Of a stretch of DNA of 64,000 bases, positions 28,412 to 29,330 are shown in pieces; positions within the stretch are counted from its first letter, which is position 1; the number at the start of each line of letters is the position of its first letter. The stretch comes from Escherichia coli (lineage in GTDB: Bacteria; Pseudomonadota; Gammaproteobacteria; Enterobacterales; Enterobacteriaceae). A program made the translations under genes and the position numbers. The DNA is taken from assembly GCF_045037415.1 (NCBI RefSeq), contig NZ_CP173438.1. One strand, written 5' to 3'. The notes below the pieces were generated by a model, which did no database searches, was not told where the DNA came from, and saw only the letters and a program-made list of their open reading frames with translations.

Positions 28412-29330
28412 GAATCTTGACCTTTTTTGCTGTTATCGCCACTCCCTGCCGTGGAAGTCAGCTTAGAACAATGTACTCCCCCAGGACGGTGTTTTGAAGG
28501 TCTGCAGAATAAGATTTTGCCAGAGGGGAAGGCTCGATTGTGCTGTTAATAACTTAATAATGGCAAAATAATGAGGTGCATATGCTTAATAAGTAATGTT
28601 ATGTAGTGAATTGTTCTGATTCTTAATTGTAAGTGTGGTTTTTTTATCTGTAAGATAATTGTGTGAAAATGCCTCGTTTAAGAATTCACTACTGAATCGC
28701 GATGATGATATTTCCGCATTACGGAGAGTTTAACAGCGTGATGATTTCCGAGGTGTCACAATGGGGGCAAGGTGTGAAACTATTGTTAAGCGGAATTAAT
28801 GAATGGGGATGAAGCTAATTAATTATTATTTAATATTCAAAAAGGTTTTGTTGTGCTTATTAATAATAGAAGATTACTTTGCCTAACATAACATAACTTT
28901 GCATCAGATAATTCGCAATGACCCTTATAAATAAAAGGTTTTTGGGGTAAAATGCTTGCATAAATGACGGATCCCTGCTCTTGATGCCGCCTCACCATTG
29001 CTGTTTGTACGTGTTCGCGTATGACCAGCGATGCTGTACGAGAGTGGAACAAGGACTCACATTTACATTTATACAAACACGCGCATGTCATAAATAGAAA
29101 AGAGTGAGTAACTTAATAGATATGCGATCCCTGAAGATATATTCTGTGATCTACTTCAGGCATTATAACGGAACAATGTGAGTCGCTTTTTTAGTGCAAC
29201 TCATATGCATTTTTACTTTCGTCCGGGTTCCGGATGAAACTGCCAGGGAGGCACATTACAAATGGAATTGCTTGTTTGTGTGTGCACAGCATTAACCAGC
29301 TCAGTATGAGCCGCCAGTAAGTGATAATAT

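Follow-up and report, generated by a model that had tools for sequence, protein, structure and literature searches.

The intergenic region separating alaA from lrhA was analysed in a 64,000-nucleotide stretch of Escherichia coli DNA (contig NZ_CP173438.1), here called the window, to which all positions refer unless otherwise stated. The gene alaA is located on the minus strand at 27194–28411 (405 aa), its 5' side ending at 28411, and lrhA on the plus strand at 29331–30269 (312 aa), leaving exactly 919 bp (28412–29330) between the two divergent genes. The counterpart in E. coli MG1655 is the same 919 bp at 2406642–2407560 of NC_000913.3, and AlaA and LrhA are 100% and 99% identical to the K-12 proteins, in agreement with the gene identities and the divergent layout proposed in an initial annotation made from the DNA sequence alone. 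The same annotation described the region as the longest non-coding stretch of the window, and this was confirmed by ranking the window's intervals between greedily called ORFs (minimum 90 aa). The runner-up, between lrhA and nuoA (30270–30898), is 629 bp long with a GC content of 0.388 and presumably holds the lrhA terminator together with the nuo promoter region.

The GC content of the gap is 0.385, compared with 0.522 for the window; it is 0.351 over 28540–29120, where strong AT-richness with roughly one-third GC had been noted by eye, and 0.333 between the two promoters described below. The AT-rich strings quoted initially are all present, TTAATAA occurring four times, AACATAACATAAC at 28885 and ATAATATATGATAAG at 29324. 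Three out of the four other gaps longer than 250 bp in the window have a GC content of 0.38–0.41; the AT-richness is typical of promoter-bearing gaps in E. coli, and the unusual feature of the region is its length, not its composition. A repeat search of the gap returned only short matches compatible with chance.

The gap was found in 5425 out of 5426 complete E. coli genomes with 95–100% identity; a contiguous copy is missing in 42 of the 5425, and no annotated features lie under it in the complete genomes apart from occasional IS elements. When comparing the window with K-12, 21 substitutions and no indels were identified in the gap, 17 of them in the spacer between the promoters (28520–28924), giving a divergence from MG1655 of about 4.2% in the spacer against 0.8% in the rest of the gap. 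The promoter hexamers and the alaA leader are free of differences, as are the final 290 nt of the lrhA leader; two substitutions fall just before the lrhA transcription start site (TSS), at -3 and -1.

IS elements were observed in the gap of two isolates. The urine isolate E. coli U15A carries an IS1 at 28848–28856 with a 9-bp target duplication, TTGTTGTGC, in a gap otherwise 100% identical to that of the window; the element lies ~105 bp upstream of the lrhA TSS and parts conserved upstream blocks from the lrhA core promoter. In E. coli SCPM-O-B-12142 an IS1 is situated within the gap, ~150–170 bp from its alaA end, and is followed by elaD fragments and rbn, which points to an IS-mediated deletion of lrhA and, judging from the K-12 gene order, probably of the nuo operon.

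Outside E. coli the divergent pair was found with a gap of 764–1013 bp in 78 Enterobacteriaceae species and with a gap of 812–1032 bp in Erwinia, Proteus, Xenorhabdus and Sodalis. The conservation analysis is based on an alignment of 79 Enterobacteriaceae species, which gave a distance between the two -35 boxes of 308–436 bp (median 427) with a median GC content of 0.34, and an lrhA leader of 333–463 nt. Across Enterobacterales the layout is conserved: the gap measures ~760–1030 bp, its AT-rich spacer ~430 bp and the leader 333–463 nt, and the length of the spacer is held constant while its sequence drifts. The AlaA proteins of the 78 species are 93–99% identical to that of the window and the LrhA proteins 74–95%; LrhA evolves much faster than its neighbour. 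A Budvicia-like contig was the only fetched relative in which alaA does not adjoin an lrhA homologue; the gene found upstream of alaA there encodes a branched-chain amino-acid transporter. Its AlaA is called at 500 aa with an N-terminal extension of ~96 aa, probably a mis-called start.

On the lrhA side a σ70 promoter was identified at 28925–28953 (plus strand), with the -35 box TTATAA at 28925–28930, a 17-nt spacer and the -10 box TAAAAT at 28948–28953, ending 7 nt upstream of the published +1 at 28960. The -35 box is TTATAA in 65 of the 79 species and the -10 box TAAGAT or TAAAAT in 57 of them. The TSS is taken from the literature: Melamed et al. 2023 describe the lrhA 5' UTR as "unusually long", 371 nt, and their fusion primer SM079 begins the lrhA fragment at ATAAATGACGGATCCCTGCT, which maps to 28960; the published leader start, ATAAATGACGG, is likewise found at this position, 371 nt ahead of the lrhA AUG. 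The initial annotation had placed an autoregulated lrhA promoter and a long leader in the gap; the published 5' UTR agrees with the latter, and positive autoregulation by LrhA has been reported in the literature. A consensus-based promoter and terminator scan gave three hits against 3.2 expected and missed both real promoters, and for this reason conservation and published data, rather than a consensus score, underlie the promoter calls. One of the chance-level scan hits, the promoter-like CTAACA-18-GATAAT, overlaps 28902–28917.

The lrhA leader (28960–29330, plus strand) is bound by Hfq and targeted by several sRNAs. Hfq co-immunoprecipitation recovered RNAs of 150 and 350 nt, designated 'ig-lrhA-alaA', and northern blots showed an lrhA mRNA of ~1.5 kb accumulating in an hfq mutant; the short RNAs were concluded to be fragments of the lrhA leader arising from processing (Bilusic et al. 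2014). These published fragments, attributed to the leader, account for the unannotated small RNA that had been considered possible in the gap. An lrhA-lacZ fusion was repressed by UhpU, ArcZ and RprA, and RIL-seq chimeras were found between RprA and the leader (Melamed et al. 2023). The same study showed that repression by UhpU is restored by a compensatory mutation, and that McaS, which forms the most RIL-seq chimeras with the leader, left lrhA-lacZ unchanged.

When searching for the pairing sites, RNAduplex, run with whole sRNAs and the leader, yielded long duplexes with many loops that were uninformative, and a search for contiguous complements (at least 8 nt, at most two wobble pairs) missed the sites, which were placed by hand with the aid of the published mutant lrhA-M1. 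This mutant changes GCCGCCAGT to GCCGCGAGT and maps to C29315, and the UhpU site is therefore placed at 29312–29318 (CGCCAGU, complementary to UhpU ACUGGUG), adjoining the ribosome-binding region. Complementarity further suggests a putative ArcZ site at 29241–29251, UGCCAGGGAGG against UUUCCCUGGUG of ArcZ, and a putative site shared by RprA and McaS at 29280–29290, where GUGUGCACAGC could pair with GCUGUGUGU of RprA and with UGCUGUGUGUAC of McaS. In the latter, CACAGC is kept in most genera, with AGC invariant or almost so and changes in the first three bases in a few (CATAGC, GTGCAGC); the UhpU site and the predicted ArcZ site are conserved in Escherichia only and partly in Citrobacter. A weak Shine-Dalgarno region, UAAGUGA, is found at 29318–29324, of which AAGTGA is nearly invariant in the 79 species and present also in Erwinia, Proteus, Xenorhabdus and Sodalis. 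On this side of the gap conservation is concentrated in the core promoter and in the final ~90 nt of the leader, whose middle part is poorly conserved. The fold of the leader has a z-score of -2.3 compared with shuffled sequences, and RNAalifold proposed no consensus structure for the last 130 nt. By eye, a short stem can be seen just upstream of the ribosome-binding region at 29298–29318 (alignment columns ~136–156), overlapping the UhpU site and reading CAGNU...ACCUG in many genera and GCUC...GAGC in E. coli; it is not called by RNAalifold because the register of the alignment shifts, and no claim is made for it.

On the alaA side conservation peaks in the ~110 bp adjoining the gene. A -35 hexamer (TTCAAA, 28493–28498) and a -10 hexamer (TACATT, 28470–28475) separated by 17 nt are predicted on the minus strand; CTTCAAAA, containing the -35 box, is conserved family-wide and GAGTACATT, containing the -10 box, is nearly invariant in the 79 species, the sequence between them being variable. 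Both are present in Erwinia, Sodalis and Xenorhabdus. The alaA TSS is predicted at about 28462–28464, corresponding to about 2,407,508–2,407,510 in MG1655, with a leader of about 52 nt. A consensus-based guess by Shimada et al. puts the alaA promoter elsewhere, at TTAAGA-17-TATAAC. Further upstream a block conserved in most genera, CAAAATCTT (28511–28519, minus strand; about -48 to -56 of alaA), is a candidate UP element or activator site. A claim involving Lrp in the regulation of alaA is reportedly due to Kim and colleagues (2010). The Shine-Dalgarno core of alaA reads AAGG at 28421–28424 (minus strand), 9 nt before the AUG at 28411, and A57 and G59 of AAGGTC are invariant in the 79 species.

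The predicted 5' end of the alaA mRNA carries a putative hairpin, GCU-G-ACUUCC[ACGGCA]GGGAGU-GGC with a bulged G (28438–28462, minus strand), which is present in the minimum-energy fold with a stability that is not unusual. In the 79 Enterobacteriaceae its closing pairs are invariant and the loop ACGGCA nearly so; in the stem 92% of the cells are paired, and the pair 30–47 appears as AU in 45 cases, GC in 12 and GU in nine. The covariation score is 0.186 against 0.157 ± 0.009 in shuffles, none out of 500 reaching it, and control stems slid along the alignment score at most 0.071. Alternation between U-G and U-A is tolerated on the alaA-sense strand only, which speaks for an element acting at the RNA rather than the DNA level. 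The promoter and the hairpin core are kept in Erwinia and Sodalis, the promoter only in Xenorhabdus and neither in Proteus. The hairpin has no match in Rfam, and its motif was not found upstream of alaC or avtA; in the window there is one exact copy, and seven hits at up to two mismatches against 4.7 expected. A search of the literature for this leader hairpin or for an sRNA linked to alaA found none, and the hairpin may be the one possibly new item of the region.

The AT-rich spacer between the promoters (28520–28924, GC 0.33) is poorly conserved in sequence apart from three blocks read from the 79-species alignment, all given on the plus strand. Two are candidate regulator sites, TGTGAA-N-ATTGTTAAG-N-ATTAATGA at 28773–28803 (-187 to -157 of the lrhA TSS) and AATTAATTATTATTTAATATT at 28817–28837 (-143 to -123), and the third, CATCAGATAATTCGCA, is situated at 28902–28917 (-58 to -43). 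Most of the spacer and the middle of the lrhA leader are poorly conserved, and a sequence-specific role may be lacking for a large part of the 919 bp. Binding of transcription factors to the gap has been described in the literature for Lrp, in this case with activation, for CpxR, for OmpR and for LrhA itself, and Shimada et al. list the '920 bp-long lrhA-alaA' region, bound by the RpoD holoenzyme, as a multi-factor spacer. Insertions in the gap have also been published: a Tn5 in the gap renders the ST131 strain EC958 hypermotile, and in the Serratia alaA-pigU gap insertions alter PigU-dependent phenotypes in a manner consistent with raised pigU expression, a similar insertion in E. coli being cited in the Serratia pigU paper as over-expressing lrhA.

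Two other functions proposed for the spacer and the leader were compared with these data. A spacer acting mainly as a curved silencer bound by H-NS, Fis or IHF, or representing a horizontally acquired AT-rich insert, would fit its GC content of 0.33 over about 400 bp, and the insertions upstream of the promoter reported to raise lrhA or pigU would fit the loss of a negative element, but these transposon effects are equally explicable by outward-reading promoters. DNA curvature, a check suggested by the initial annotation, was approached by A-tract and phasing statistics, which showed six A-tracts in the gap against 6.6 ± 2.3 in shuffles and no phasing of AA/TT at 10–11 bp (autocorrelation at lags 9–12 at most 0.06), that is, neither enrichment nor phasing. 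The HNS column is moreover blank for lrhA-alaA in the genomic-SELEX promoter table of Shimada et al., where other spacers are marked. The expectation of tracts for H-NS/Fis/IHF-type proteins is only loosely supported: Lrp, which is nucleoid-associated, binds, as do OmpR and CpxR, but the H-NS entry and phased A-tracts are missing. Synteny is conserved across Enterobacterales, as are length and AT-richness; the spacer is therefore not a recent acquisition, and we regard the silencer or insert explanation as quite improbable. It is likewise improbable that the Hfq-bound 150- and 350-nt leader RNAs have a trans-acting role, such as that of a sponge titrating McaS, RprA or ArcZ. The strong enrichment by Hfq co-immunoprecipitation of short fragments barely detectable in total RNA would agree with such a role, as would the conserved CACAGC of the predicted RprA/McaS site and the abundance of McaS chimeras without an effect on lrhA-lacZ, for which the authors themselves suggest inhibition of McaS as a possibility. 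Against it, the gap holds no separate promoter or terminator for such an RNA, the only terminator-like site lying outside 28412–29330, inside alaA at 28360–28379; the fragments share the 5' end region of the mRNA and are read by the authors as processing products, and the 5' two-thirds of the leader are poorly conserved. Nor did Rfam give a match for the gap, the best scores being 12–22 bits compared with gathering thresholds of 43–80. A hit to STnc170 (14 bits) in the E-value mode of Rfam was put down to chance, the Salmonella STnc170 being located near SL1458, a different locus.

It is, finally, highly improbable that the gap hides an unannotated small-protein gene, be it the Cys/Lys-rich ORF of 84 aa or one of the upstream ORFs within the lrhA leader. 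Such ORFs exist: the 84-aa ORF is present in the window at 28837–29091 on the minus strand, and among the leader ORFs at 29262–29309 (15 aa) and 29234–29320 (28 aa) the shorter one lies in a conserved block with GGAGG 11 nt before its AUG. However, start, frame and stop are not preserved across species. The 84-aa ORF is intact in none of the 78 species, E. albertii included; intact copies of the two leader ORFs are confined to two near-identical Escherichia sequences, and for none of the 31 ORFs of at least 10 codons in the gap does the number of species retaining it exceed 11. Many genera have AAG, ACG or AGG in place of the AUG of the 15-aa ORF, with the flanking GGAAUUGCUU still conserved. 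A Pfam search of the gap ORFs gave no matches, and the curated K-12 record (MG1655, NC_000913.3) has no features annotated between alaA and lrhA, though elsewhere it does carry very small proteins as well as UhpU. The distrust of short ORFs in the initial annotation was accordingly well placed, and the conservation check that it had called for, run on 78–79 Enterobacteriaceae species, revealed no conserved ORF in the gap.

Taken together, the gap is best explained as a two-way control region consisting of divergent promoters, an AT-rich spacer and a 371-nt sRNA-targeted lrhA leader, an organisation that is largely published and a reading to which we assign a probability of about 0.9. The region is an already characterised one and not a new element, and the interpretation first given to it was essentially right. 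The lrhA TSS, Hfq binding, UhpU pairing and factor binding come from the literature; the predicted alaA promoter and TSS, the putative exact sites for ArcZ, RprA and McaS and the proposed roles of the conserved upstream blocks come from the present analysis. In the mechanism we propose, the first ~90 bp on the alaA side would carry the σ70 promoter TTCAAA-17-TACATT, giving rise to a leader of ~52 nt that opens with the hairpin. In the middle lies a stretch of ~400 bp rich in AT; binding of Lrp, OmpR, CpxR, LrhA and RNA polymerase to the gap has been reported, and insertions in this stretch alter the output of lrhA. On the other side the lrhA promoter fires at 28960 and produces the 371-nt leader bound by Hfq, with UhpU pairing at -19 to -13 and ArcZ and RprA probably further upstream within the last ~90 nt, and pairing of these sRNAs would lower both translation of LrhA and the stability of the mRNA.

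Since LrhA represses flhDC, the leader would connect sugar-phosphate, oxygen and envelope signals with motility, RpoS and fimbriae. LrhA is placed above flhDC, rpoS/rprA, type 1 fimbriae and, according to recent reports, CRISPR-Cas, so that the control region may be said to decide between a motile and a sessile life. That lrhA control matters is already acknowledged, and work on the region is ongoing; what is added here is a base-by-base map, the conservation of length and layout despite the drift of the spacer, a negative result for hidden genes and the conserved hairpin of the alaA leader.

When comparing with other systems, the closest likeness to the lrhA leader is found in those of flhDC, csgD and rpoS, which have the same combination of a σ70 promoter and a very long Hfq-bound 5' UTR. 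In these, as in lrhA, several sRNAs pair near the ribosome-binding region, ArcZ, RprA and McaS being shared, and in each case it is a global regulator whose translation and stability are controlled. The lrhA leader differs in that the sRNAs tested on it repress or do nothing, none activating, and in that UhpU is specific to lrhA among them. As an intergenic region, lrhA-alaA is grouped by Shimada et al. with csgD-csgB (755 bp) and nanC-fimB (about 1456 bp), which also have many factor sites; unlike in these, ~40% of the lrhA-alaA gap is transcribed leader, and its row lacks the HNS mark that several other spacers in the table carry. The same divergent pair with a similar gap length is known as alaA-pigU in Serratia, with hexA/pecT in Pectobacterium and Dickeya and with lrhA in Xenorhabdus and Pantoea, and insertions in the Serratia gap act on PigU-dependent phenotypes in a way that fits altered pigU expression. 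Outside the promoter cores and the ribosome-binding region most of the sequence in the gaps of the distant relatives cannot be aligned, and sRNA control has been shown in E. coli only.

For the alaA leader a comparison can be made with ompA, whose leader hairpin is a 5'-terminal stabilising stem-loop. The alaA hairpin is likewise a short stem-loop at, or within a few nt of, the predicted 5' end of the mRNA, and its stem is also maintained by compensatory change. Unlike a generic end-protecting stem, the alaA hairpin has invariant closing pairs and a nearly invariant loop at this predicted 5' end, which pure end protection would not need and which hints at a specific partner. A tentative and rather unlikely extension of this idea is that the UUCC-ACGGCA-GGRA core is an undescribed sequence-specific RNA element docking a protein or an sRNA and tuning synthesis of the main alanine transaminase. 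Our best guess is that the hairpin functions as a 5'-end stabiliser, possibly with such a specific partner.
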